Positions 5,124-44,914 of a DNA stretch of 64,000 nucleotides are shown piece after piece. The stretch is from Escherichia coli. Lineage in GTDB: Bacteria > Pseudomonadota > Gammaproteobacteria > Enterobacterales > Enterobacteriaceae. The first letter of the stretch is position 1. Every line of letters begins with the position of its first letter. A program made the translations under genes and the position numbers. The DNA lies in assembly GCA_023061495.1 (NCBI GenBank), contig GCA_023061495.1_3643.1. One strand, written 5' to 3'. A model generated the notes under the pieces. That model searched no databases and was not told the origin of the DNA. It saw only the letters and a list, made by a program, of their open reading frames with translations.

Positions 5124-5522
5124 TTACTGAACAGAGCGCGGAGCTGGGAAGGATAACTCTTCTAAAGAGAAGATTTCATTTCCCACAATCCATGTTGCCG
5201 GATCATCTGGGTTGACCGGATAGATAATCATCACCTCGTCCGTGTTACATACCCGCTTTTTACCTGTGGAGTCATCAGCAACCAGCATACGCGGTTCTTC
5301 AGAAATGCACAGGTAGCCTCCTCGGCCCACTGTTCCTTCCACAGGGTCTTGTCCTTTGATCACGATGATTATCTTCTCCCCTGAGGCGATATTACCTTGC
5401 ACACTCACCGTTTGACCAACCTTGGATGTGCCAATCTTAGTGACTTCGAACATTACATCCCGAATTACCGTTGCATAATCGCCAGACACTTTCTTACCTT
5501 CTTTAGTGATCTCAATCTTCAT
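5124..5522 (-). CDS. hypothetical early protein
   Basis: 132-aa ORF. Confidence 0.5.
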   Translation of the reverse strand: MKIEITKEGKKVSGDYATVIRDVMFEVTKIGTSKVGQTVSVQGNIASGEKIIIVIKGQDPVEGTVGRGGYLCISEEPRMLVADDSTGKKRVCNTDEVMIIYPVNPDDPATWIVGNEIFSLEELSFPAPRSVQ

Positions 5523-5758
5523 ACACTGTGCTCCTTAAATGAATCTATGTAATCAATTAAATCCCAAGCATCCCTATGACCTGTCAGAGGGTATACTTCT
5601 CCAAGAGGGATCATAGCAGTAAGTCTATCAAAAACCCAATCCGGACGCAACATCTTATGGTGATATTCCCACTCACCTTCTACAGACTTTTTCTGAGTGA
5701 TCAGAATCTCTGTGTAGTGTTTTGCCTGTCTTGAGTAAATTGAAAATGACTTATACAT
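5519..5758 (-). CDS. hypothetical early protein
   Basis: 79-aa ORF, start overlaps neighbour. Confidence 0.45.
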   Translation of the reverse strand: MYKSFSIYSRQAKHYTEILITQKKSVEGEWEYHHKMLRPDWVFDRLTAMIPLGEVYPLTGHRDAWDLIDYIDSFKEHSV

Positions 5759-5795
5759 AGATGACCCTCCCTCTTGTTGAAAACAAAATACACTA

Positions 5796-6080
5796 CTACC
5801 AAGTCACTGTCAAGTAGGCAACCGTGTTATTTTTCTCCGGAGAGATGCCAACAACATCCACCTGCAGACCTCCTGCCCTCAAATCTCCAACGATGTGTGG
5901 AAAGTAGTCTGAGAGGTGTGATGGGAGATTTATCGAAAATCCACATCCCAGAAAGCCTGCTAACGCTTTATTTTGTATCTCCCCTACAATCGCATCATAA
6001 ATAGAGTTAAGCTCGTCAGGAAGCGTTACAGGACGTTTTAGAGCTAACTGGTGCAACTTGTCCTTAGCACTCATTTTCAT
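5796..6080 (-). CDS. hypothetical protein
   Basis: start moved to ATG at 6080 (MKMSAKDK...), which forms an ATGA overlap with the methyltransferase stop; ORF track begins further upstream at 6149. Confidence 0.45.
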   Translation of the reverse strand: MKMSAKDKLHQLALKRPVTLPDELNSIYDAIVGEIQNKALAGFLGCGFSINLPSHLSDYFPHIVGDLRAGGLQVDVVGISPEKNNTVAYLTVTW

Positions 6081-6610
6081 TTCAAGTCTGCCTCTGGTGG
6101 TGCCAACCACATAAATGGCGGCAAGTCTAGACGGTTTTTCTTGTCCCATACAAAATATGCATATGCCTGCCCATCCGTTCTACCATTGGATTGGAATGAC
6201 GGACGCTTAGATATTGTGATCACGGTGGTAGGTGCATTATCAAGCCACCATTCAAATCTGGCCTTGCTTTCCAGAAAATTAAGACGCAAAAGCATAATAA
6301 CTACGTCAGCATCTTTCAACGCCTTGTCTACAAACTCACGAGCCAGGCTGTACGGTGGGTTGGTGATAATACAGTCAACATGGTTGTATTCTGTATTCAG
6401 ATAGTCAACACCTTCTTGGATTTCTCCCCATGCAGATCCTAACGGCATACGGGAGTAGAACACACCTGAGGCACTATTCCTGCAAGGCTCTAAGTAAGTC
6501 CAGTCTTCTGGGAACGGAATAAGGTCATACAGCCCTTCTGCACACCACTCCGGTGTCACATACTCATCGTAAGCGTTACGTTGTTCATCAGGTTTTCTAG
6601 CACAAGTCAT
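6077..6610 (-). CDS. DNA N6-adenine methyltransferase (Dam-like)
   Basis: catalytic motif IV NPPY in IITNPPYSLAREFV; size typical of small phage Dam-like enzymes. Confidence 0.7.
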   Translation of the reverse strand: MTCARKPDEQRNAYDEYVTPEWCAEGLYDLIPFPEDWTYLEPCRNSASGVFYSRMPLGSAWGEIQEGVDYLNTEYNHVDCIITNPPYSLAREFVDKALKDADVVIMLLRLNFLESKARFEWWLDNAPTTVITISKRPSFQSNGRTDGQAYAYFVWDKKNRLDLPPFMWLAPPEADLK

Positions 6611-6621
6611 GCAAATCTCCA

Positions 6622-6650
6622 GATCATAAAAGCCCTCCGAAGAGGGCTTT
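6622..6650 (-). terminator. rho-independent terminator hairpin (AGCCCTC-CGAA-GAGGGCT) after protease gene
   Basis: perfect 7-bp stem, CGAA tetraloop, U-rich run on minus strand. Confidence 0.5.
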
Positions 6651-6661
6651 AGAATTAATGT

Positions 6662-7711
6662 TTAAGCTTCTTCGACAATTCCTGCGCCCAGGATTTTTTC
6701 ATTGAGCTCTTTTGCTGTTTTAATAATATTGTCCACCAGACGCTTACGGGTCTTATCTTTCACCTGAACTTCTTCGCCGCCGTTCAGGGTGGTTTTCAAT
6801 TGGGACAAAATGTCCTGAAGCTCTACCACAGAGAATCGCTGCAGATCTTCCGAGGTAATCTCCCCCAGTGCAATCTTAACGGTCTCACCACTCTCCATCT
6901 GCAGATTCAGGAACACAGTGTGAACATCACCTTTCATACCATTTTCTTTTGCAGACTCAACAGCATGAACCAGCTCGTCCAAAGATGTGCATTGGTGAAT
7001 CTCTGGCAGGCCTGCTTCGCCTAGCACACCTTCTTCATCACTTTTTGCCAAAAGCTTTTTCGGTTTCTGTCCATTCTGAATGCGCTGAATGTTTTCATCG
7101 TCCAGAATGATAGCACCAGTTCTAGATGCCAGCTCTTCTCCATCTAACCACACTTCACCGCCAGCTGTGATGGATGCGATCTCATCTTCTGTTAACACCC
7201 CACCGTAGTATTTTTCGATCAGGCGTTCAAAACGTTTCTTCCAGTAGTTGATCTGGGTATTCATGTTCACACCGTTACCATAGGTGCCACCTTGATAGTA
7301 GTGGAACATAAATTCTGTGTCCGGAGCCACAGTTCGTTCTTTGCAACCCAGCCATAAGATTGTTCCTGCCGAGCAGCACATCCCTTCAGCGTGTACAACA
7401 ACGCTTGCCTGAGACTCGCGGAATGCCTGCAAATACGCCATAGCAATGTGAACGCAACCACCAGGACTGTTAATGATTACACGGATACTTTCTTCTGGCT
7501 GAGCCATACGGATCGTCTGTAGACGAGACATGTGATCTTGTAGGTCGTCCAAATCGTCGATATAAAGAACGTGGTCAACAACAGGTGTTGGGTAGCTGTA
7601 TGTTTCCATAATACCACCAGGCATACCGAACATTTTGTTACTCATAGGTTCGAAACCGTTCTGTTTTTCTTTCATGCCGTGTACCATGGTGCTGCGAGGT
7701 GTTAAATTCAT
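6662..7711 (-). CDS. ClpP-like serine protease with C-terminal extension
   Basis: ClpP-like motifs INSPGGCVHIAMA, GMCCSAG (Ser) and MFHYYQGG (His); about 150 extra C-terminal residues. Confidence 0.7.
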   Translation of the reverse strand: MNLTPRSTMVHGMKEKQNGFEPMSNKMFGMPGGIMETYSYPTPVVDHVLYIDDLDDLQDHMSRLQTIRMAQPEESIRVIINSPGGCVHIAMAYLQAFRESQASVVVHAEGMCCSAGTILWLGCKERTVAPDTEFMFHYYQGGTYGNGVNMNTQINYWKKRFERLIEKYYGGVLTEDEIASITAGGEVWLDGEELASRTGAIILDDENIQRIQNGQKPKKLLAKSDEEGVLGEAGLPEIHQCTSLDELVHAVESAKENGMKGDVHTVFLNLQMESGETVKIALGEITSEDLQRFSVVELQDILSQLKTTLNGGEEVQVKDKTRKRLVDNIIKTAKELNEKILGAGIVEEA

Positions 7712-7771
7712 GAGAAATCCTTAATATTGGAAGTTGAAAGCTATTTATTTAAACCTGATTCACATTTACCT

Positions 7772-8083
7772 TTATTTAGCAATCACTATAGAATACTTAC
7801 GATTGTCAGAAGCATCACAGCTCAACGATTGCCAGTCTACCACATACCACGTATCATTGTCAACAATTACTTTGTCGCCTGTTCTGTAGCAGGTGCTGCT
7901 TTCAATAATTCGAGACTCGATAAAGAATCTGTGTCTGCGCTCACGTAACAACGCTAAGTTGATTATATTACCACCGCTGTCCTTGGTCCACACATTCTTG
8001 GATCCCTTATTTGCCAAAATTGTCTCACCGTTATAGACAAATAGGCAGTATATTTTATTCAGTCTCTCTTGTATTGTAGCCAT
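7772..8083 (-). CDS. hypothetical protein
   Basis: 103-aa ORF downstream of promoter 8113..8141. Confidence 0.45.
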   Translation of the reverse strand: MATIQERLNKIYCLFVYNGETILANKGSKNVWTKDSGGNIINLALLRERRHRFFIESRIIESSTCYRTGDKVIVDNDTWYVVDWQSLSCDASDNRKYSIVIAK

Positions 8084-8112
8084 ACTGTGCCCTTCTCCTT
8101 GTTTTGTCCAAT

Positions 8113-8141
8113 AATAATATCTAAAGCTTACCTGTTTGTCA
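8113..8141 (-). promoter_or_regulatory. sigma70-like promoter (TTGACA-N17-TATTAT)
   Basis: minus-strand -35 at 8141..8136, 17-nt spacer, -10 at 8118..8113. Confidence 0.55.
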
Positions 8142-8186
8142 ACAACTGTTTTAGATATTTAAGGGTGGAATAACCACCCTTCTGTA

Positions 8187-8975
8187 TTACTCGGAAACAG
8201 GAGTCCAAATATGATTTGCACGATCCTCAATAAGATTAAGTGCAATCTGACGGCCCAACCCGGAACGAACAACATCGTCCGGGCTATCAAAGCTAATCAT
8301 TCCAACCTCAGGATCTGGATGACGCGTAAAGAAATCTGTCACCCATGCAAGGCCAGACTTACCGGGGATGTCACGTTGGCTGTTATCACCCATAATTACA
8401 AGGGTGGCCTGATCAGAGATCCTTGTGATAATTGACAACATTTCTTCAGGGTTAGTTTGCTGTGCCTCGTCAATCAGGACAAAGCATCGCTCATCGAAAC
8501 TACGACCACGAATGCTTTCAACTTCACAAATCTCTATACGGCTGTTCTGACCGTCTCCCAGCATTGCGGCAAAAGCACCTTTGCCAACACGACGACAAAT
8601 CGTGTCCATCATACTACGAAGGTAAGGCCAAAGCTTCTGCATTGACGTTCCCGGTTTGTATCCGCTTGATTTCCCGGTCTGTACATAAGGACGTGCAACA
8701 ATGATCTTATCAATCTCATTCTTACGCAGAAGATCACCTGCATATGCAGATGCCAGGAATGTCTTACCAGATCCAAACACACCGTTTACAATAATAATCT
8801 TACGTGACCCTAGATAATCAAGATACTTTTGCTGCTTTTTATTCATTGGTCGGAGAGCTGGAGCGGTGTGCTCTCGTTCGTCAGCAAATTTCTCAGCAGC
8901 CTTACGCAGGCGATCAGATTTGCGAGCCTCTCTAGCTTCATCACGCATGCGTTTTGTTTCTTTAGCTCGACCCAT
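8187..8975 (-). CDS. phoH: PhoH-like ATPase
   Basis: Walker A GVFGSGKTFLA; overall PhoH-like length and layout. Confidence 0.8.
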   Translation of the reverse strand: MGRAKETKRMRDEAREARKSDRLRKAAEKFADEREHTAPALRPMNKKQQKYLDYLGSRKIIIVNGVFGSGKTFLASAYAGDLLRKNEIDKIIVARPYVQTGKSSGYKPGTSMQKLWPYLRSMMDTICRRVGKGAFAAMLGDGQNSRIEICEVESIRGRSFDERCFVLIDEAQQTNPEEMLSIITRISDQATLVIMGDNSQRDIPGKSGLAWVTDFFTRHPDPEVGMISFDSPDDVVRSGLGRQIALNLIEDRANHIWTPVSE

Positions 8976-9013
8976 GTTGGGACTCCTTTCAGATTGAGAT
9001 GTGCCAAGTACTT

Positions 9014-38492: not shown

Positions 38493-38776
38493 GAGTTGCT
38501 ACACTGTTTATTGTGTGCTTGTTATTATGTGGGTGTGCAACAAGCGTTGAGAGAGAATACAAGATTGACCCTCCGGATGTAGGAAGGTTGATTGTTAAAC
38601 CCCCGGAAGGTGCCATGAAACCACCTGCTAAATCTATGCCTTTGAAGAAAGGTGCGCCAGATGCAGTGAATTCTGGCATTATGAGGGATAATAATCTGTC
38701 TTGTAGCAATGATAGAGCTAAATTGATCATTTTGCAAGACTATATTAGAACACTGTTTCCAAAGGAGAGAGGTTAA
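38489..38776 (+). CDS. putative o-spanin (Rz1-like outer-membrane lipoprotein)
   Basis: signal peptide with lipobox-like LLCGC, proline-rich mature region; stop overlaps terminase start (TAATG). Confidence 0.55.
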   Translation: MRVATLFIVCLLLCGCATSVEREYKIDPPDVGRLIVKPPEGAMKPPAKSMPLKKGAPDAVNSGIMRDNNLSCSNDRAKLIILQDYIRTLFPKERG

Positions 38777-40323
38777 TGTCTAAGATTTACGGACCGTGTT
38801 CTGAAAAGCAGAAGATGATCCTAGAAAACGATGCGGATATTTTGGTAATCGGCGGTGCCGCAGGGTCTGGCAAGTCGTTCCTCCTGCAGTTGATGCCGCT
38901 TAAAATTATTGATGACCCCCACAGCTCTGTGGTTATGTTCCGAAGAACAACCCCACAGTTGGAAGGTGAGGGTGGGCTATGGCCTAAAGCAGTAGCTATT
39001 TATAGTGATCTGCCTGAAAACATTAAGCCAAAGTTCAGAGAGAAGGATCATAAGTTTATTTTCCCACGGTTTGATCCGAGCACTGGCAAGTGGGATAGAA
39101 GCAAAAAGGGAGCTGTTGTAAAATACTGCCACATGGAGTATGTACAGGATAAGCTTAACCATCAAGGTCTTGAGTACACCATGGTTTGCTTCGACGAGGG
39201 CACGCAGTTCGAATGGGAGCAGATAGACTATCTGATGTCTCGTCTGCGATCTCAGTCAAAGTATCCATCAAGAATGGTTATTAGCTGTAACCCCGATTCA
39301 GAACACATGCTTGCCAAACTGGTTAGATGGTGGTTGGACGATGAAGGATATCCAGATCCGGAGAAATGCGGTAAGAAAAGATATTTTATCCGACGCGACG
39401 GTGAATTTATCTGGGGAGACTCTAAAGAAGAGTTGATAGAGAAATACACCACGGTTAACGGACTGGGTGTGGAGATCAAGCCAAGACCGTTGTCATTCTC
39501 ATTTATAGGCGCAACAATATTCGATAATCCTGTCTGCTTAAGAGACAACCCCGAATACCTTGCTTTCCTTGAAGGTCTGCCGGAACTGGAAAAAGCTCAG
39601 CTTCTTCATGGTAACTGGTTTGCAAAGCCTGAGGGTGCAAACTATTTTCAAAGATCTTTCCTTCGTGATGCCGATAGAGTACCCCTTGGATCAGTATCTT
39701 GTAGGGCATGGGATAAGGCAGGAACCGAGAGAACTTCCGGTAATAAATTTCCTGACTTTACCGCCAGTGTTAAGGTAAGTAAGGATAGCGACGGCTTTTA
39801 TTACCTGTCCGGTGATTATTGTCCTGAGAACGTGGATGACGGGAGATATTCCACAGGTCTGGAAGGTAAGTTCTGTAAAAAGGCTGGTGAACGAGATGTG
39901 ATCATCAGGAAACAGGCGCAGTTTGATGGTGATGATTGTATAATCGTATTCTCTGTGGACCCAGGTCAGGCAGGTAAGAGTGAGTTCTTAACCTCCTCCA
40001 GATCCTTACTCGCCGAAGGGTTTAGGGTTGAAGAAGACCCAATGCCTTCCAACAAATCTAAACTAACAAGGTTCTCCCCTTTTGCCAATCTTGCCCAACA
40101 AGGGATGGTGAGGATTGTAAAATCCAGTTTCCATCCTGACACTCTGGAAGCATTTCTGACTGAACTTGAAAAGTTCAACGGGGAAAGATCAACATTTAAC
40201 AGAAAAGACGACTGGGCCGACTGTGTGGCTTCTGCGATTAATTTCCTGGAGAAAGAGGAGGTAGCACTTCCTTGTGTGATTCCATCAATCTCATCACCTT
40301 CTATGTTCAAGCGTTTTATCTAA
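38776..40323 (+). CDS. terminase large subunit
   Basis: N-terminal Walker A VIGGAAGSGKSFLL; 515 aa; immediately upstream of portal-sized gene. Confidence 0.8.
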   Translation: MSKIYGPCSEKQKMILENDADILVIGGAAGSGKSFLLQLMPLKIIDDPHSSVVMFRRTTPQLEGEGGLWPKAVAIYSDLPENIKPKFREKDHKFIFPRFDPSTGKWDRSKKGAVVKYCHMEYVQDKLNHQGLEYTMVCFDEGTQFEWEQIDYLMSRLRSQSKYPSRMVISCNPDSEHMLAKLVRWWLDDEGYPDPEKCGKKRYFIRRDGEFIWGDSKEELIEKYTTVNGLGVEIKPRPLSFSFIGATIFDNPVCLRDNPEYLAFLEGLPELEKAQLLHGNWFAKPEGANYFQRSFLRDADRVPLGSVSCRAWDKAGTERTSGNKFPDFTASVKVSKDSDGFYYLSGDYCPENVDDGRYSTGLEGKFCKKAGERDVIIRKQAQFDGDDCIIVFSVDPGQAGKSEFLTSSRSLLAEGFRVEEDPMPSNKSKLTRFSPFANLAQQGMVRIVKSSFHPDTLEAFLTELEKFNGERSTFNRKDDWADCVASAINFLEKEEVALPCVIPSISSPSMFKRFI

Positions 40324-40425
40324 GTGTTGCCAATCTTAATTAGATGTGGTAGAATAGAGTAATCGGAGATACTAGCCCTCTAACACGAGGGCTATTTTGT
40401 TATACTGTTTTGAGGGGTAAAGCTT

Positions 40426-41982
40426 GTGTCCAAAAAGAACCGCAGGAAACACAACGCCACAGCCAAAACTGTGAATAAATCTGGGAACGCAGGCGCACCA
40501 ACTCATAATGTTCGTATGAGTGAGATCGGTTCTGGCGCACTTTCCCAAATTATGGCAGAATCGCAATCTATGATGGTTGAGGAATTGCGTTGGCCTCAGC
40601 TGATTGCCACCGTGGAGACTATGAAATGTGATTCCACAGTTGCCACTGCCTTAGATACAAAATATGTTTTCATCACGAAAGCATTCAATGATTTTAAGAT
40701 CCTTTATAATGTTAAAAGTGAAGACTCTAAGAAAGCTGCCGAGCTTATAGAGTATTCTTTGCGTAATTTGGCAAACCAACAAACTCTTCGAGATATTGCA
40801 AGAAGCGCAGCTACCTTTAACGAGTATGGTTTTTCACTGTTTGAGAAAGTATACCGCAGAGAGAAAGAAGGTAAATATGCCGGGATGCTTCTTATTGATA
40901 AAATTGCATTCCGACCGCAGGCCAGTCTGTCCAGATCAGAGCCGTTTGTCTTTGACAAGAACAGTAGAACACTGACAGGTATTTATCAGTCACCTAATGC
41001 ATTTCTAAACACTCAGAATGCACGCTGGGCTGGACCTCTTGCTGCAATGCCTCCAAAAGGCTTTAATGAGCCTGAAATTTTCATCCCTGCTAAAAAGCTT
41101 ATGCTCATGACCCTGTCAGGAACAGAATCTAACCCTGCAGGTGTGTCACCAATGATAGGTTGCTACAGATCTTTCCGTGAGAAAGTTCTGATTGAAAACC
41201 TTGAGGTTGTTGGCTGCTCCAAAGACCTTGGTGGTGTGCTTGAGCTGAAAATTCCTTCCAATATTTTGAACAAGGCCAGCATTGACCCGAATTCGATGGA
41301 AGGGAGAATGGTTGCAGATCTTATGTTGGACGCAGCAAACGCCCATAGTGGTGAGCAAAGTTTCTTTATACTTCCGTCTGATAGAGATAAGTCTGGTAAA
41401 GAGCTTTACTCCATGACCCTGAAGGGGGTTGACGGTATGGGTAAGCAGTATTCCACTAAAGATTTGATTGATGCCCGTAAGAAGGCGATTCTTGACCGTT
41501 TCGGTGCTGGATTTATTAACCTCGGTAACGATAACGTTGGATCCTTCTCTCTGTCTGAGTCAAAACAGTCTATCCATGGTCATTTTGTTCAGCGTGATAT
41601 AGATATTATCACTGAGGCCTTCAATAAAGATCTTATCCCACAGCTTCTGGCATTGAATGGTATCATCCTTGAAGATGATGATATGCCTAAACTGAAACCT
41701 GGTCTGATTGAAGAAGTGGACATGGAGAGCTTCTCCAAGTTTGTCCAGAGGATCGGTGCTGTAGGTTACTTGCCAAAAACTCCTGCAGTAATTAATAAGA
41801 TTCTTGAAGTAGGTGGGTTTGATGAAAGATTTGACGAGGACATGGATCAGGAAGAGCTGATGAAGCTCTTGGGCCAGGATATCAGTAGGGCTGGTGATGG
41901 AATGGCTGCAGGATCCACTGGTAACGGCACTTCTAAGATGTCATCAACCAGAGATAATTCCATATCCAACATGGAAAATTAA
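40426..41982 (+). CDS. portal protein
   Basis: 518 aa directly after terminase and before scaffold/decoration/capsid genes; GTG start with GAGGGG RBS; call rests on position and size. Confidence 0.65.
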   Translation: MSKKNRRKHNATAKTVNKSGNAGAPTHNVRMSEIGSGALSQIMAESQSMMVEELRWPQLIATVETMKCDSTVATALDTKYVFITKAFNDFKILYNVKSEDSKKAAELIEYSLRNLANQQTLRDIARSAATFNEYGFSLFEKVYRREKEGKYAGMLLIDKIAFRPQASLSRSEPFVFDKNSRTLTGIYQSPNAFLNTQNARWAGPLAAMPPKGFNEPEIFIPAKKLMLMTLSGTESNPAGVSPMIGCYRSFREKVLIENLEVVGCSKDLGGVLELKIPSNILNKASIDPNSMEGRMVADLMLDAANAHSGEQSFFILPSDRDKSGKELYSMTLKGVDGMGKQYSTKDLIDARKKAILDRFGAGFINLGNDNVGSFSLSESKQSIHGHFVQRDIDIITEAFNKDLIPQLLALNGIILEDDDMPKLKPGLIEEVDMESFSKFVQRIGAVGYLPKTPAVINKILEVGGFDERFDEDMDQEELMKLLGQDISRAGDGMAAGSTGNGTSKMSSTRDNSISNMEN

Positions 41983-42049
41983 AAATTATCAACACAGGGG
42001 GTTGCAAAACCTCCTTTGGCGTGATAAAATAATCCACATGGGGAATAAG

Positions 42050-42469
42050 ATGCCACAGGAAGAAATGATTTCCTACGAAATCATCTACGAACCTGACACT
42101 AAAGATGCTCACGGTGAGTGGATGAGTAAAGACACCATCAAAAAGGCTAAAGATAACTGGGACGCAGCATACGCCGCAGGCCTAGTTTCTGAGAACCTTT
42201 TCCACTTGACCTCTACAGATGCTTTCACCATTGAAAAGACGTGGATTCAAGAAGAGTTTGATGTTGTAGTGATTGGCACTGAGCAGGTCATCAAGGCTGG
42301 CTCTTGGGTTGCTAAAGTTAAATACAATAATCCTGAACTATGGGAAGCTAAGAAGGCTGGCATTGTTGGTGGCCTAAGCATTCAGGCAACAGGTAATGTT
42401 GATGAAGAAACTGGTGAAATTACCAACGTAAACTTCGGGATCAGTGTTGTAGAAGAGGGCAATGAATAA
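42050..42469 (+). CDS. hypothetical head-module protein
   Basis: start set to ATG 42050 after portal stop (ORF-track start overlaps portal); sits where a prohead protease is usually found but has no protease motifs. Confidence 0.4.
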   Translation: MPQEEMISYEIIYEPDTKDAHGEWMSKDTIKKAKDNWDAAYAAGLVSENLFHLTSTDAFTIEKTWIQEEFDVVVIGTEQVIKAGSWVAKVKYNNPELWEAKKAGIVGGLSIQATGNVDEETGEITNVNFGISVVEEGNE

Positions 42470-43446
42470 TGTCTGAAAAAACGATTACTATTAAAGAGAA
42501 GGGGATTGCCCTGTGCCATAAGGCGCAAGGCTATAGCGCTAACAACAGACCTGTATCTCTTTTGATGAAGAGTGATCTTAAGCCTGAGCAGTTAACAGAC
42601 GATATTGTTAAGGCACTTCGCCAAGTTACTGTGGAGCTTAGTTTTGAAGAATACCTGCGTCGTTTCTTCGATATGTGGTATGATGATGCTAAAGCACTTG
42701 CACACATGCTTGGTTTTGAGATTGAAGAGGAGGCTTGGGCTAAAGAGCATCCTGATTGGGAATGGGCGCAAGCTGACGCAGAGTCTTGTATTGCATGGCT
42801 GGAAGAGCGTTGTGATAACGTGACCATTCATAAAGCTGCAAAAGAAGGTAAGCAGCTTAGTGTGGTAGATCAGTACAGCCTGTTAAAAACACAACAGATT
42901 TTTGAACAAGTAACCGCTGATCTCTTCGATAAAGAAGGGAACCTGATCAAGGCGGTACAGGAACCTGCTGAGGTAGATAAAACTACCGAGGTGGATGATG
43001 TTGCAAAATCCGCAAATACCGAGGAGAATCCGGTGGACGTAACCAAAACTAAAGAGTATCTGGATCTGCTGAAGCAAGTAGAAGAGCTGAAAGCAACCCA
43101 GAGTAAAGCTGAAGAAATCATCAAGGCCCAGGTTGAAGTTGAAAAAGCTAAAATGCTGACTAAAGCTCAAGCTTTAAGCTTTGTTGGTGAAGAAGATCAT
43201 GCAACCCTGGTTGACTTCATGCTGGAAAAAGCTAACGAACCTATTGTAGCTATGCTGGAGAAAGCTCAAGCCAAAATTGAAGAGCTGGAAGCAGAGGTGC
43301 ATAAAACCAAAGAAGAGTTTGCCACCACTGAACATGGTAATGATGGCGAACCTGTTGTGGATGATATTGCAAAATCCGCAGAAGAAATTCTTGCTGAAAA
43401 CGTTGCAAAAGCACTTGCTCGTGCACGTGCAGAATCTACTAAATAA
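42469..43446 (+). CDS. putative scaffolding protein
   Basis: acidic, helix-rich 325-aa protein with coiled-coil-like repeats between portal and capsid genes. Confidence 0.45.
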   Translation: MSEKTITIKEKGIALCHKAQGYSANNRPVSLLMKSDLKPEQLTDDIVKALRQVTVELSFEEYLRRFFDMWYDDAKALAHMLGFEIEEEAWAKEHPDWEWAQADAESCIAWLEERCDNVTIHKAAKEGKQLSVVDQYSLLKTQQIFEQVTADLFDKEGNLIKAVQEPAEVDKTTEVDDVAKSANTEENPVDVTKTKEYLDLLKQVEELKATQSKAEEIIKAQVEVEKAKMLTKAQALSFVGEEDHATLVDFMLEKANEPIVAMLEKAQAKIEELEAEVHKTKEEFATTEHGNDGEPVVDDIAKSAEEILAENVAKALARARAESTK

Positions 43447-43466
43447 GACATTAACGGGGGAAATAA

Positions 43467-43853
43467 ATGATTACCGCTCAATATTCTGATATCGTGCTCG
43501 GCAAAGTTGATTCTAGCGATGCTGGCTACAATTTTAAAGAGATCAAGGTAACACTGACAGAGCATCACCACGCTGGTACTGTTGTAACAAAAACCGGGAC
43601 TATCGCTAACGCAGACGGTTCTGATGTGTACGGCGTTCTTGTTGACCGTGCTCTTGTCAAAGATGCTGGTACGGTTCATCTTGCAAAACCATTAGAAGTG
43701 GGTCAGTCCTATAACCTGGTTGTTGCCGTTCACGGTGTTACCTTTGCAAAAGATATGCTGTTAGGTGCAGACGGAGCTAAAGCAGACCAAAGAATTCTGG
43801 ATAAGTTGGAAGCTTTAGGTAACAAAGTTCACGTCCAGACTATTGGTGAATAA
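43467..43853 (+). CDS. putative head decoration protein (lambda gpD-like)
   Basis: 128 aa directly upstream of capsid gene; Gly/Val/Ala-rich beta-type composition; host-optimal codons. Confidence 0.45.
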   Translation: MITAQYSDIVLGKVDSSDAGYNFKEIKVTLTEHHHAGTVVTKTGTIANADGSDVYGVLVDRALVKDAGTVHLAKPLEVGQSYNLVVAVHGVTFAKDMLLGADGAKADQRILDKLEALGNKVHVQTIGE

Positions 43854-43903: not shown

Positions 43904-44914
43904 ATGATTACTCGTAAAGATGAATTTGGCATTGTTGATTTAGGTGCTACTCTGGACCTTGTTCCGCGCCAATTCCGACTGATCACTGGTATGGATCTGT
44001 TCGAAACCCGTCTCGGCACCTCAACAATTGCTCAGATCGAGCGTGTTGATGAAGTTGTAACCGACATTCCGGCACGCCGTCGTGGCGGTGAGCGTAACTA
44101 CGTTGGTAGTGAACGTGCTCAGGTTAAAAACCTGAACATCCCGTTCTTCCCTCTGGACAAAGGCATCACTGCCGCAGATGTTCAGAACTTCCGTCGTTAC
44201 TTCACCCCTGATGCTCCGAAAACTGTTCAGGATGTAGTAACCCGCGTTGTTCGCCGTATCCGTGTTTCTCATGAAGCACTGCGTGAGAAAGCGCTGTTCC
44301 AGGCTATTCTGGGTAAATCCTATGCACCTGGTGACGCTACCTGTCAGTATGATTACTACACTCTGTGGGATGTGTCTCAGAAGTCTGTTGAGATTGACCC
44401 TGCAAAAGCAGATCAGGATCCTATGGAGGTTCTGGAAGAAGCTCGTCTGCACATCGCACTGCAAGCTGGCGATAACGCAGCTGGCTATCGTATTGTAGCT
44501 CTGTGCTCACCAGAGTTCTTCAGCGCTATTACCCATCACCCGCTGGTAGAACTGGCATACACCTATTACGGCTCTGCTCAGGAACCTCTGCGTCGCCGTC
44601 TGGGTGCTGGCGGTCAAGACAGCGTATACCGTGTGTTTGAACATAAAGGTATCACCTTTATCGAAGATATCTCTGGCAATATTCCTAAGAAAGAGGCTCG
44701 CATTCTGCCGATGGGTATTGATCAGATGTTCCAGCTGCACTTTGCTCCGGCAGACGATGTTAACGAAGCAAACACTCCAGCACAGGAACTGTACATGTGG
44801 TACAAACACTCTGCATACCTGCGTGAAGAGAAGATTGAATCTGAAACTTCTATGCTGGCAGTTAACACCCGTCCAGAGTTGGTTGTTAAAGTAACTCTGA
44901 AAAACGGTGGCTAA
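43904..44914 (+). CDS. major capsid protein (lambda gpE-like)
   Basis: 336 aa after scaffold and decoration genes; strongly host-optimal codons (CTG, CGT, GGT, AAA); strong terminator immediately downstream. Confidence 0.65.
   Translation: MITRKDEFGIVDLGATLDLVPRQFRLITGMDLFETRLGTSTIAQIERVDEVVTDIPARRRGGERNYVGSERAQVKNLNIPFFPLDKGITAADVQNFRRYFTPDAPKTVQDVVTRVVRRIRVSHEALREKALFQAILGKSYAPGDATCQYDYYTLWDVSQKSVEIDPAKADQDPMEVLEEARLHIALQAGDNAAGYRIVALCSPEFFSAITHHPLVELAYTYYGSAQEPLRRRLGAGGQDSVYRVFEHKGITFIEDISGNIPKKEARILPMGIDQMFQLHFAPADDVNEANTPAQELYMWYKHSAYLREEKIESETSMLAVNTRPELVVKVTLKNGG

Follow-up and report, generated by a model that had tools for sequence, protein, structure and literature searches.

The question raised by this locus is whether a ClpP-like serine peptidase, encoded far from the head genes of a phage, matures the prohead or serves some other purpose. 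The window analysed (the whole stretch of 64,000 nt) derives from an rV5-like myovirus (Vequintavirus) with 97% nucleotide identity to the E. coli phages SYGMH1, HMD-6 and FV3. The initial annotation had placed the gene about 33 kb from the portal, scaffold and capsid genes, which is accurate (the portal gene begins 32.7 kb away), and had described the head module as having no recognisable protease, which is not. Since the head cluster carries a putative head-maturation protease of the normal kind, the distant ClpP-like gene is read here as a separate one; we consider it fairly probable that an enzyme of the XkdF/S78_2 type serves head maturation and that ORF 6662..7711 encodes a distinct, non-structural peptidase with a ClpP fold. 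The head genes concerned are these.

40426..41982, plus strand: portal protein gene (PHROG 113, E=2e-88; Pfam Portal_Mu)
42050..42469, plus strand: putative prohead protease of the XkdF type (Peptidase_S78_2), 139 aa, with an alternative ATG start at 42038
42469..43446, plus strand: scaffold-like head protein gene (PHROG 2970; rV5 gp62 homologue)
43904..44914, plus strand: major capsid protein gene of the lambda-E type, 336 aa (Pfam Phage_cap_E, E=2e-38)

The protein encoded between portal and scaffold, earlier said to hold no protease motifs, matches PF14550 over profile positions 10-123 of 126 (E=8.7e-18; 65 bits, the cutoff being 24) and PHROG 3017, labelled 'head maturation protease', at E=7e-14; PF14550 is likewise carried by all 120 of its listed homologues (listed from 288). 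Public records already call homologues 'prohead protease' (e.g. MZ501073), 'XkdF-like serine protease' or 'peptidase'. Across 20 diverse homologues (55-76% identity), residues D19, H21, H52, K89, S110 and E123 are invariant, with Ser110 lying in GGLSI here and in GG[LV]S among the homologues; His52 is paired with Ser110 as the putative active site, the choice of catalytic histidine being read from the sequence. Upstream of the ORF stand a ribosome-binding site and the late-promoter-like TGATAAAATA, with the motif at 42022, and the stop codon overlaps the start of the scaffold gene. The gene order portal-protease-scaffold-decoration-capsid is common to the window phage and ICP1, in which the homologue of the slot protein, gp125 (Peptidase_S78_2), belongs to the transcription class 'Late' and the homologue of the scaffold-like protein was shown to work as a scaffold. 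Moreover, homologues of the slot protein were detected at low level in CB7 and W70 virions by published mass spectrometry.

The slot protein resembles the XkdF/Peptidase_S78_2 proteases in passing the Pfam threshold, in its conserved His and Ser and in its portal-scaffold position, but differs from many XkdF-type relatives in being short (139 aa) and in having no N-terminal extension of ~60 aa. A longer form of 191 aa, starting with GTG at 41894, was considered and set aside; the additional N-terminal stretch runs into the portal gene and bears no resemblance to the N-terminal extension of the 208-aa relatives, and the form of 139-143 aa is therefore preferred. Among sequence relatives none with a solved structure was found. 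We suggest that the slot protein is a putative head-maturation protease occupying the canonical place between portal and scaffold. An annotation trap attaches to this ORF, in that its best PHROG match, PHROG 1530, is labelled 'DNA methyltransferase', and the RefSeq records of rV5 and FV3 give its homologue that same label.

It had also been proposed that processing of the capsid protein by the ClpP-like enzyme would speak against a role outside the head. This test proves to be off target: in rV5 virion data a peptide of the 336-aa lambda-E-type capsid protein begins at residue 5, and therefore the rV5 capsid protein is not N-terminally trimmed.

The ClpP-like gene and the parts of its product are as follows.

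6662..7711, minus strand: ClpP-like serine peptidase gene, 349 aa (rV5 gp122 homologue; PHROG 5410)
7067..7579, minus strand: predicted ClpP-fold core, residues ~45-215, including the handle helix (150-169), with AF2 pLDDT of 80-92
7370..7372, minus strand: codon of Ser114, predicted nucleophile, aligning with E. coli ClpP Ser111 of the precursor (Ser97 mature)
7301..7303, minus strand: codon of His137, predicted general base, aligning with E. coli ClpP His136 of the precursor (His122 mature)
6929..7066, minus strand: variable linker, residues ~216-261, mostly predicted disordered (pLDDT <50 at 222-240 and 259-262)
6677..6928, minus strand: family-specific C-terminal domain, residues ~262-345, ~85 aa, a beta-hairpin followed by helices

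That this ORF is a gene is well founded. It has a ribosome-binding site (AAGGA, 8 nt 5' of the ATG), its product is 100% identical to a protein of phage YP-6, residues 59-168 match Pfam CLP_protease (E=5.6e-13; 49.6 against a gathering score of 20.2), and the full-length protein matches PHROG 5410 (E=3.8e-155, residues 24-345 on profile positions 4-322 of 323), a profile labelled 'ATP-dependent protease' and found in Vequintavirinae-like phages. The gene is also already known, having been annotated in more than 100 rV5-like genomes since 2013. When its structural model is compared with the PDB by Foldseek, ClpP chains rank first (E ~2e-9, target-normalised TM 0.65-0.73, 160-173 aligned columns), and the fold of the modelled protein is ClpP/crotonase-like with a handle helix.

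The Ser and His motifs of the ClpP family reported in the initial annotation are confirmed, with Ser114 (in GMCCSAGT) and His137 (in FMFHYYQGG) in register with the catalytic pair of E. coli ClpP. Both are invariant in 25 family members (alignment A1) and in distant relatives (alignment A4), being kept out to relatives with 20-30% identity, and the oxyanion-hole motif NSPGG is conserved in the family as in E. coli ClpP. The third position of the triad, Asp171 in ClpP, is Glu186 here; most of the 25 family members have Gln, and distant relatives have Asp, Glu or Gln.

Outside the core the protein is less constrained: the N-terminal 43 residues are variable and predicted to be disordered, and at the other end the ClpP core stops near residue 200-215, so that ~135-150 aa remain, in line with the C-terminal extension of roughly 150 aa noted before. 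This extension begins with a linker of ~45 aa, which is gap-rich and poorly conserved in the family alignment, and ends with a domain in which Phe293, Glu297 and Arg322 are invariant. An exhaustive profile search for this domain in 1.84 billion representatives returned just family members, fragments and three repetitive proteins, and neither a PDB sequence search nor BFVD gave a further match. A helix-extended-helix reading of the domain (SAP or Rho N-terminal), suggested by the pattern F-x3-E-L ... R-x2-L-I, was not supported, with Pfam HeH matching a single member at E=0.08 and hhalign against E. coli Rho giving a probability of 0.2%. Homology between the C-terminal extensions of the rV5 type and of ICP1 gp211 was likewise rejected (hhalign probability 0.4%). 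PADLOC gave no significant defence or anti-defence similarity for the ClpP-like protein.

Three further features define the transcription unit to which the gene belongs.

8114..8142, minus strand: sigma-70-type promoter-like site TTGACA-17-TATTAT, agreeing with 11 of 12 consensus positions, equivalent to rV5 P121
7772..8083, minus strand: ORF of 103 aa (PHROG 5456), first gene of a two-gene unit
6626..6647, minus strand: intrinsic-terminator-like hairpin GCCCTC-TTCG-GAGGGC followed by TTTTAT, 15 nt past the stop codon of the ClpP-like gene

The unit thus runs from the sigma-70-type promoter through the 103-aa ORF and the ClpP-like gene to the terminator, on the strand opposite to the head genes, and the promoter and terminator around it are identical to P121 and t122 of rV5 (rV5 Table S4). 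No Vequintavirus transcriptome was found in the literature, and the timing is therefore taken from promoter motifs and from the ICP1 homologue: ICP1 gp211 is classed as 'Middle-late', together with PhoH and NrdB, and the head genes of that phage are late. 'Middle-late' timing in ICP1 overlaps with head assembly.

Two options had been put forward to account for the gene, and the first of them, prohead maturation by a distant protease, loses its premise, since the XkdF/S78_2-type protease fills the head slot. The second, another role, fits better and is favoured by elimination and by context, namely the gene's own sigma-70-type unit, the absence of its homologues from the published virion proteomes of rV5, CB7 and W70, the middle-late class in ICP1 and the possession of other head proteases by the phages of its relatives; the particular roles offered with it, host proteolysis or processing, are not demonstrated. 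We propose that head maturation would be carried out by the XkdF/S78_2-type serine protease of 42050..42469, and that the ClpP-like peptidase, made from its own host-RNA-polymerase-type unit in the replication/nucleotide-metabolism arm of the genome, would be catalytically active in the infected cytoplasm, where it may cleave host or phage proteins independently of ClpX and ClpA. The fast-evolving C-terminal domain on its flexible linker would then be a recruiting module, and the neighbouring PhoH a candidate functional partner. A literature search for phage-encoded ClpP as such returned no papers.

An alternative that we regard as unlikely is that the ClpP-like protein is a second, remote head or virion protease, which the C-terminal domain would target to proheads and which would cut internal or minor head proteins beside the XkdF-type enzyme. 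Considering the profile scores, its best characterised relatives are indeed ClpP-related head-maturation proteases, to which it stands nearer than to cellular ClpP (NF045542, 62.9 bits, E=3e-17, and PHROG 1684, 84.6 bits, E=2e-23, versus 33.5 bits for TIGR00493); Gordonia phage capsid maturation proteases match at 28-31% identity, and ClpP-type prohead proteases (PHROGs 94, 2976 and 133 also belong to this group) often carry C-terminal additions in the form of scaffold or targeting regions, including protease-scaffold and protease-capsid fusions. However, the NF045542 score falls below the cutoff of 120, and the gene, unlike those of the ClpP-related head proteases, lies outside the head module, whose protease slot is held by an enzyme of a different fold family; it is far removed, on the opposite strand and in a sigma-70-type unit. 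The neighbour conserved across lineages is PhoH and no head gene, and C-terminal extensions are missing or unrelated in other lineages.

The virion proteomes of three related phages also argue against a second head protease. For rV5, MudPIT reported 19 virion proteins, from which the ClpP-like gp122 is absent; that study, done on an old ion-trap instrument, missed the XkdF-like protease as well. No Clp protein is listed in the virion tables of CB7 and W70, in which the XkdF-type protease was detected. In favour of a virion role, besides the middle-late class of the ICP1 homologue, is work on BF23, a T5-like phage, published in 2023, which states the function of the BF23 Clp protease to be unknown and which detected this distant homologue in purified virions; but the signal consisted of three peptides of low intensity, was exceeded by that of dihydrofolate reductase from the same sample and may be a contaminant. 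Some association of the ClpP-like family with capsids is conceivable. On contigs that are probably the same, to judge from the equal lengths of the longest ones, identity is 42-47% for the ClpP-like family versus 68-73% for the head protease, and the former thus appears to evolve faster.

The immediate neighbours of the unit, a PhoH gene and a methyltransferase, had been correctly named, although the latter is weak.

8187..8975, minus strand: PhoH-like ATPase gene (Pfam PhoH PF02562, 161 bits), a conserved neighbour of the family
6077..6610, minus strand: methyltransferase-like ORF, 177 aa, downstream of the ClpP-like gene (PHROG 799 'DNA methyltransferase', E=5e-67; Pfam Dam and EcoRI_methylase matches weak, below cut-offs)

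PhoH is adjacent to or near the ClpP-like gene in rV5-like phages, ICP1, Barbavirus and Otagovirus, and stands beside or near it in eight of 10 sampled metagenomic contexts (seven of them distinct, as two share a layout); in the ninth the neighbour is a PIN-domain gene only. This recurrent pairing, seen in most lineages sampled, is a new lead. It suggests a reading in which the ClpP-like peptidase and the PhoH ATPase, which some lineages have as a fusion with a PIN RNase, would form a phage two-component machine acting, for example, on stalled ribosomes or ribonucleoprotein. In such a previously unrecognised system, proteolysis would be linked with the nucleotide-dependent remodelling of RNA or ribonucleoprotein, for instance in order to clear or reprogram host ribosomes or to destroy a defence factor. 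Consistent with a joint function, the two genes are directly adjacent in unrelated genome backgrounds, and frequently share 1-8 nt of coding sequence (in four of the metagenomic contexts), and their flanks vary by lineage, comprising terminase and portal, NrdAB, dCMP deaminase and ligase, or a methyltransferase; one lineage has the two genes in the opposite order, with a PIN-PhoH fusion as the partner. Yet the evidence is that of gene neighbourhood, and PhoH is SF1-helicase-like and reported to be an RNA helicase, neither a protein unfoldase nor AAA+. In several lineages, among them Pakpunavirus, T5-like phages, phiTE and K491, the peptidase gene has no PhoH gene beside it, in the window a promoter and the 103-aa ORF lie between the two genes, and our literature search found no paper linking PhoH with a ClpP-like peptidase. 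We hold the two-component machine to be distinctly unlikely, and the same applies to the wider system built upon it.

Finally, the protein could be a genuine ClpP subunit, in keeping with its GenBank name, 'ATP-dependent Clp protease proteolytic subunit'. It would then form 14-mers, either by itself or together with host ClpP, and ClpX or ClpA of the host would drive these so as to redirect host proteolysis. With cellular ClpP (MEROPS S14; PDB 1TYF and 6WR2) it does share a fold of ~170 residues with the handle helix, the NSPGG motif and the register of Ser and His. Local identity is, however, 27%, the Asp171 position is Glu or Gln, and the phage protein has an additional linker and a C-terminal domain; its variable N-terminus, predicted to be disordered, corresponds to the residues that form the gated pore in ClpP. 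The assignment by HMM recommended in the initial annotation gives a split result, in that Pfam CLP_protease is matched and the curated ClpP and NF045542 cut-offs are missed: all NCBIfam ClpP models score 22-41 bits against cut-offs of 228-361 (TIGR00493, 33.5 versus 308.6; PRK00277, 38.2 versus 249; PRK12553, 41.3 versus 228). Moreover, the residues that we take to form the ClpX/ClpA-docking pocket of E. coli ClpP, Y60, Y62, F82, I90, M92, F112 and L114, are aligned with R77, I79, E99, H107, E109, T127 and A129, so that in this comparison, a pairwise alignment at 27% identity and not a structural superposition, six of the seven are not conserved, mostly being replaced by charged or polar residues; R77, E99, H107, E109 and T127 do not vary among family members. 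Judged from these alignments, docking of the protein to host ClpX or ClpA is improbable. For the family, the label 'ATP-dependent Clp protease subunit' used in GenBank is likely to mislead, and we consider a genuine ClpP subunit very unlikely.

The distribution of the family agrees better with the separate, non-structural peptidase that we favour. Members occur in Vequintavirinae, ICP1, T5-like phages, Pakpunavirus, Otagovirus, Barbavirus, a 253-kb jumbo vibriophage and an N4-like phage. Genes labelled 'ATP-dependent protease' in ICP1 (gp211), T5-like phages (BF23 ORF45), Pakpunavirus, Otagovirus and Barbavirus (PHROG 1827) specify this core too, with Gly-Gly, Ser-Ala and His invariant, and have a non-structural genomic setting as here; the relatives of the PHROG 1827 type are, however, just 19-26% identical, and their C-terminal extension is absent (forms of 182-204 aa) or unrelated. 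In a T5-like phage and in the 253-kb vibriophage K491 (of KVP40 size, with T4-like replication genes) the relatives lie in replication/nucleotide-metabolism regions. T4-like phages have a head protease of the gp21 type. The T5-like BF23 has a separate prohead protease, ORF164.

As first posed, the finding matters little, given that the head module has its own putative protease and that the ClpP-like gene has long been annotated. The family is nevertheless a widespread orphan across many phage groups, and its pairing with PhoH, often with overlap, provides a candidate partner for each of two long-standing orphan phage genes; were a PhoH-ClpP system real, phage PhoH genes and the genes called 'ATP-dependent protease' in many virulent phages would receive their first function. 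Additionally, a 2026 preprint describes a CBASS system that is triggered by proteolytic cleavage and defends against Vequintavirinae, its specificity there being different from that for T4 gp21. Vequintavirinae therefore carry two candidate trigger proteases, and for this link it matters which of the two is active in the cytoplasm. As to the other flank of the ClpP-like gene, a methyltransferase is found 3' of it in Barba21A and phiTE as well.

We propose that the head module of this rV5-like myovirus holds its own conserved, late-expressed XkdF-type protease, that the ClpP-like protein encoded far from it is very probably not the main prohead protease, and that the latter is most likely a non-structural peptidase active in the cytoplasm. 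More than 110 rV5-like E. coli myoviruses (Vequintavirus, including SYGMH1, HMD-6, FV3 and the BASEL phages) match the ClpP-like region at 94–97% nucleotide identity. About 18 GenBank records titled 'Campylobacter phage' (MG0656xx, host C. jejuni), which carry no annotation and are in some cases partial, show 95–99% identity to rV5-like phages over 5500..9000 and 41900..43500, which points to wrongly assigned hosts or to contamination. By GC skew and ORF orientation, the window falls into two arms.

Features of the two arms
1 to ~32 kb, minus strand: arm of replication and nucleotide-metabolism genes
6647..6626, minus strand: GC-rich hairpin and T-run, matching rV5 t122
6662..7711, minus strand: ClpP-like gene, second gene of a compact unit
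preceding the ClpP-like gene, minus strand: 103-aa ORF (PHROG 5456), first gene of the unit
8142..8114, minus strand: promoter-like site TTGACA-17-TATTAT, matching rV5 P121
from ~33 kb, plus strand: arm of structural genes
38776-40323, plus-strand arm: large terminase
40426-41982, plus strand: portal
42050-42469, plus strand: XkdF-type protease (PF14550, PHROG 3017)
42469-43446, plus strand: scaffold-like protein (PHROG 2970)
43467-43853, plus-strand arm: decoration protein
43904-44914, plus strand: major capsid protein, lambda-E-type

The initial annotation saw no recognisable protease in the head module, a view contradicted by the ORF between portal and scaffold, which passes Pfam PF14550 (Peptidase_S78_2, 'putative phage serine protease XkdF'; E=8.7e-18, 65 bits against a cut-off of 24) and is also matched by PHROG 3017, 'head maturation protease'. 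PF14550 is present in all 120 listed homologues (288 found), and Asp19, His21, His52, Lys89, Ser110 (within GG[LV]S) and Glu123 are invariant in 20 diverse ones. Between the portal stop codon and the protease ORF lie a stem–loop, the late-promoter-like TGATAAAATA and a ribosome-binding site. GenBank labels it 'prohead protease' (BASEL phage HeinrichReichert), 'XkdF-like putative serine protease' (YP-6, ECML-10) or 'peptidase' (rV5_ev); the 'DNA methyltransferase' of the RefSeq records of rV5, FV3 and Murica apparently derives from PHROG 1530, its best PHROG match, and looks like an annotation error that masks the head protease. The 190/191-aa version annotated in rV5 style starts at a GTG (41894) and shares 89 nt with the portal gene; since its N-terminus is unlike the ~60-aa N-terminal extension (DLPxS...) of 208-aa relatives, the 139–143 aa form is more likely to be the true one.

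Published data bear on the same module. The distantly related Vibrio phage ICP1 has the same gene order (capsid gp122, decoration gp123, gp124 and the Peptidase_S78_2 protein gp125), with all four classed as 'Late' by RNA-seq and the scaffold role of gp124 demonstrated experimentally. Detected in virions were, for Pectobacterium phage CB7, a 21-kDa 'prohead core protein protease' encoded between portal and scaffold-like protein and, for Escherichia phage W70, a PHROG 1530 'capsid maturation protease'. Processing of the capsid protein, a question raised by the initial annotation, finds no support at the N-terminus: the protein was covered to 83% in rV5 virions, with one peptide beginning at residue 5, and is therefore not trimmed there. 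The head protease would be expected to cut the scaffold rather than the capsid protein. In W70 virions 913 spectra came from the presumed scaffold (PHROG 2970), versus only 2–3 peptides in rV5 and CB7; where a classical scaffold is fully removed, this one may stay in part within the mature head.

The puzzle of a lone, distant protease thus dissolves: the ORF at 6662..7711 is real, but the head module carries a protease of its own. Preceded by a ribosome-binding site 5' of its ATG, the ClpP-like ORF encodes 349 aa, matches Pfam CLP_protease over aa 59–168 (E=5.6e-13) and matches PHROG 5410, 'ATP-dependent protease', at full length (E=4e-155). The Ser/His motifs noted initially are borne out, Ser114 and His137 aligning by BLASTP to the catalytic Ser and His of E. 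coli ClpP, and NSPGG to its oxyanion motif. Both residues are unvaried across 25 family members and invariant also in relatives of 19–26% identity (ICP1, Pakpunavirus, Barbavirus, Otagovirus and a Klebsiella phage). An AlphaFold2 model (mean pLDDT 72) comprises a disordered N-terminus (residues 1–43), a confident ClpP core (~45–215), a disordered linker and an alpha/beta domain (~262–345), the last two accounting for the C-terminal extension previously noted; Foldseek against PDB returned only ClpP structures (target-normalised TM ~0.7). Within the otherwise variable N-terminus of the family, an F-G-x-P-G and a Y-P motif are conserved (7628..7645, residues 23–28 region), with Phe28, Gly29, Tyr40 and Pro41 nearly or fully invariant.

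Several features speak against the name given in GenBank, Clp protease subunit. All curated NCBIfam ClpP models are failed (22–41 bits against cut-offs of 228–361), and the ClpP-related head-maturation model scores 62.9 against a cut-off of 120, yet is the best-scoring named relative. The position of the catalytic Asp171 holds Glu186, and Gln in most family members. The hydrophobic pocket of E. coli ClpP for the IGF/IGL loops of ClpX/ClpA, which we take to comprise Y60, Y62, F82, I90, M92, F112 and L114, aligns to R77, I79, E99, H107, E109, T127 and A129, five of these seven replacements being invariant in the family. Judged from these alignments, docking to the ClpX or ClpA of the host is improbable; the more specific mechanism, a non-structural cytoplasmic peptidase working without such docking, we offer only tentatively.

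The C-terminal domain, a beta-hairpin with helices in which Phe293, Glu297 and Arg322 are invariant, gave nothing significant in Pfam, no match among PDB sequences and a single match in BFVD, itself a family member; when 1.84 billion representatives were searched exhaustively with a profile, the matches were confined to family members, fragments and three proteins of repetitive sequence. Comparison gave no support for a helix-extended-helix, and showed the extension of ICP1 gp211 to be unrelated. Many relatives have no C-terminal extension. Against the same relatives the domain shows 20–29% identity versus ~60% for the core, and so diverges much faster; the whole protein, at 42–47%, also diverges faster than the head protease, at 68–73%, on apparently the same contigs. 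Such a pattern would suit a lineage-specific module for recruitment or partner binding.

P121 and t122, matched at the ends of the compact unit, are a promoter and a terminator predicted for rV5. A copy of the rV5 late motif with one mismatch lies within the 103-aa ORF (7964-7973), so that the ClpP-like gene may be expressed partly late. The motif, TGGTAAAATA, occurs 19 times in the window with up to one mismatch versus 5.9 expected by chance, including plus-strand copies at 40347, 42022, 46549, 51712, 53708, 54780, 59126 and 61501, and many copies lie 5' of plus-strand structural genes. No Vequintavirus transcriptome was found in the literature; the ICP1 homologue gp211 (326 aa) is 'Middle-late', as are the nearby PhoH (gp208) and NrdB. 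The MudPIT virion table of rV5, with its 19 proteins, does not include the homologue gp122 (349 aa), and the CB7 and W70 tables list no Clp protein. In T5-like BF23 a distant homologue, ORF45, whose function its authors state to be unknown, was weakly detected in purified virions.

The gene is already annotated and belongs to a widespread, functionally uncharacterised phage family, with relatives in 1154 phage records (tblastn). The closer ones lie outside the head module, among replication and nucleotide-metabolism genes, in ICP1, Pakpunavirus, Barbavirus, Otagovirus, Certrevirus phiTE, a Klebsiella phage and a T5-like Demerecviridae phage (both adjoining a dNMP kinase) and the 253-kb vibriophage K491 (flanked by DHFR and a DNA repair gene); an N4-like phage also has one. 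T4-like phages use gp21 as prohead protease, and T5-like phages have a separate one (BF23 ORF164); large virulent phages thus repeatedly carry, away from the head module, a second peptidase that is ClpP-like. Phage ClpP is patchily distributed, as expected for peptidases deployed against the host (Iyer et al., 2021).

As initially described, the gene lies far from the head genes (32.7 kb from the portal gene) and neighbours PhoH (PF02562, 161 bits) and a weakly methyltransferase-like ORF. PhoH is directly 5' of the protease gene in Barbavirus (with a methyltransferase 3', as in the window) and in Otagovirus (8-nt coding overlap), one ORF away in rV5-likes and two in ICP1. Among ten diverse metagenomic relatives, a small sample in which kinship is ignored, PhoH is directly adjacent on six contigs (L011/L012, L014, L015, L017, L018, L020; four with 1–8 nt overlaps), of which L011/L012 and L020 have the same layout and probably belong to a single lineage; a PIN–PhoH fusion lies directly 3' in L016, an overlapping PIN-domain gene 3' in L019 and PhoH 2 kb 5' in L013, and L021 has no PhoH or PIN context. 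Across many phage backgrounds that are unrelated, a PhoH or PIN–PhoH gene directly adjoins the ClpP-like one, and their CDSs often overlap by 1–8 nt (loci L004, L005, L011–L020). The surrounding genes vary by context (terminase and portal, NrdAB, dCMP deaminase and ligase), so inheritance of a syntenic block does not by itself explain the pairing. We found no paper linking the two genes. A classical unfoldase–peptidase pair is unlikely because PhoH is kin to SF1 helicases and is a reported RNA helicase; functional coupling, a candidate from gene neighbourhood, is plausible.

Besides this linkage, interest remains in which of the two proteases triggers a protease-sensing CBASS reported to act against Vequintavirinae. 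According to a 2026 preprint, EcCdnG CBASS fires on proteolytic cleavage and protects against Vequintavirinae Bas48–59, with a specificity that differs from that for T4 gp21; the products of 6662..7711 and 42050..42469 are the two candidate triggers in the window.
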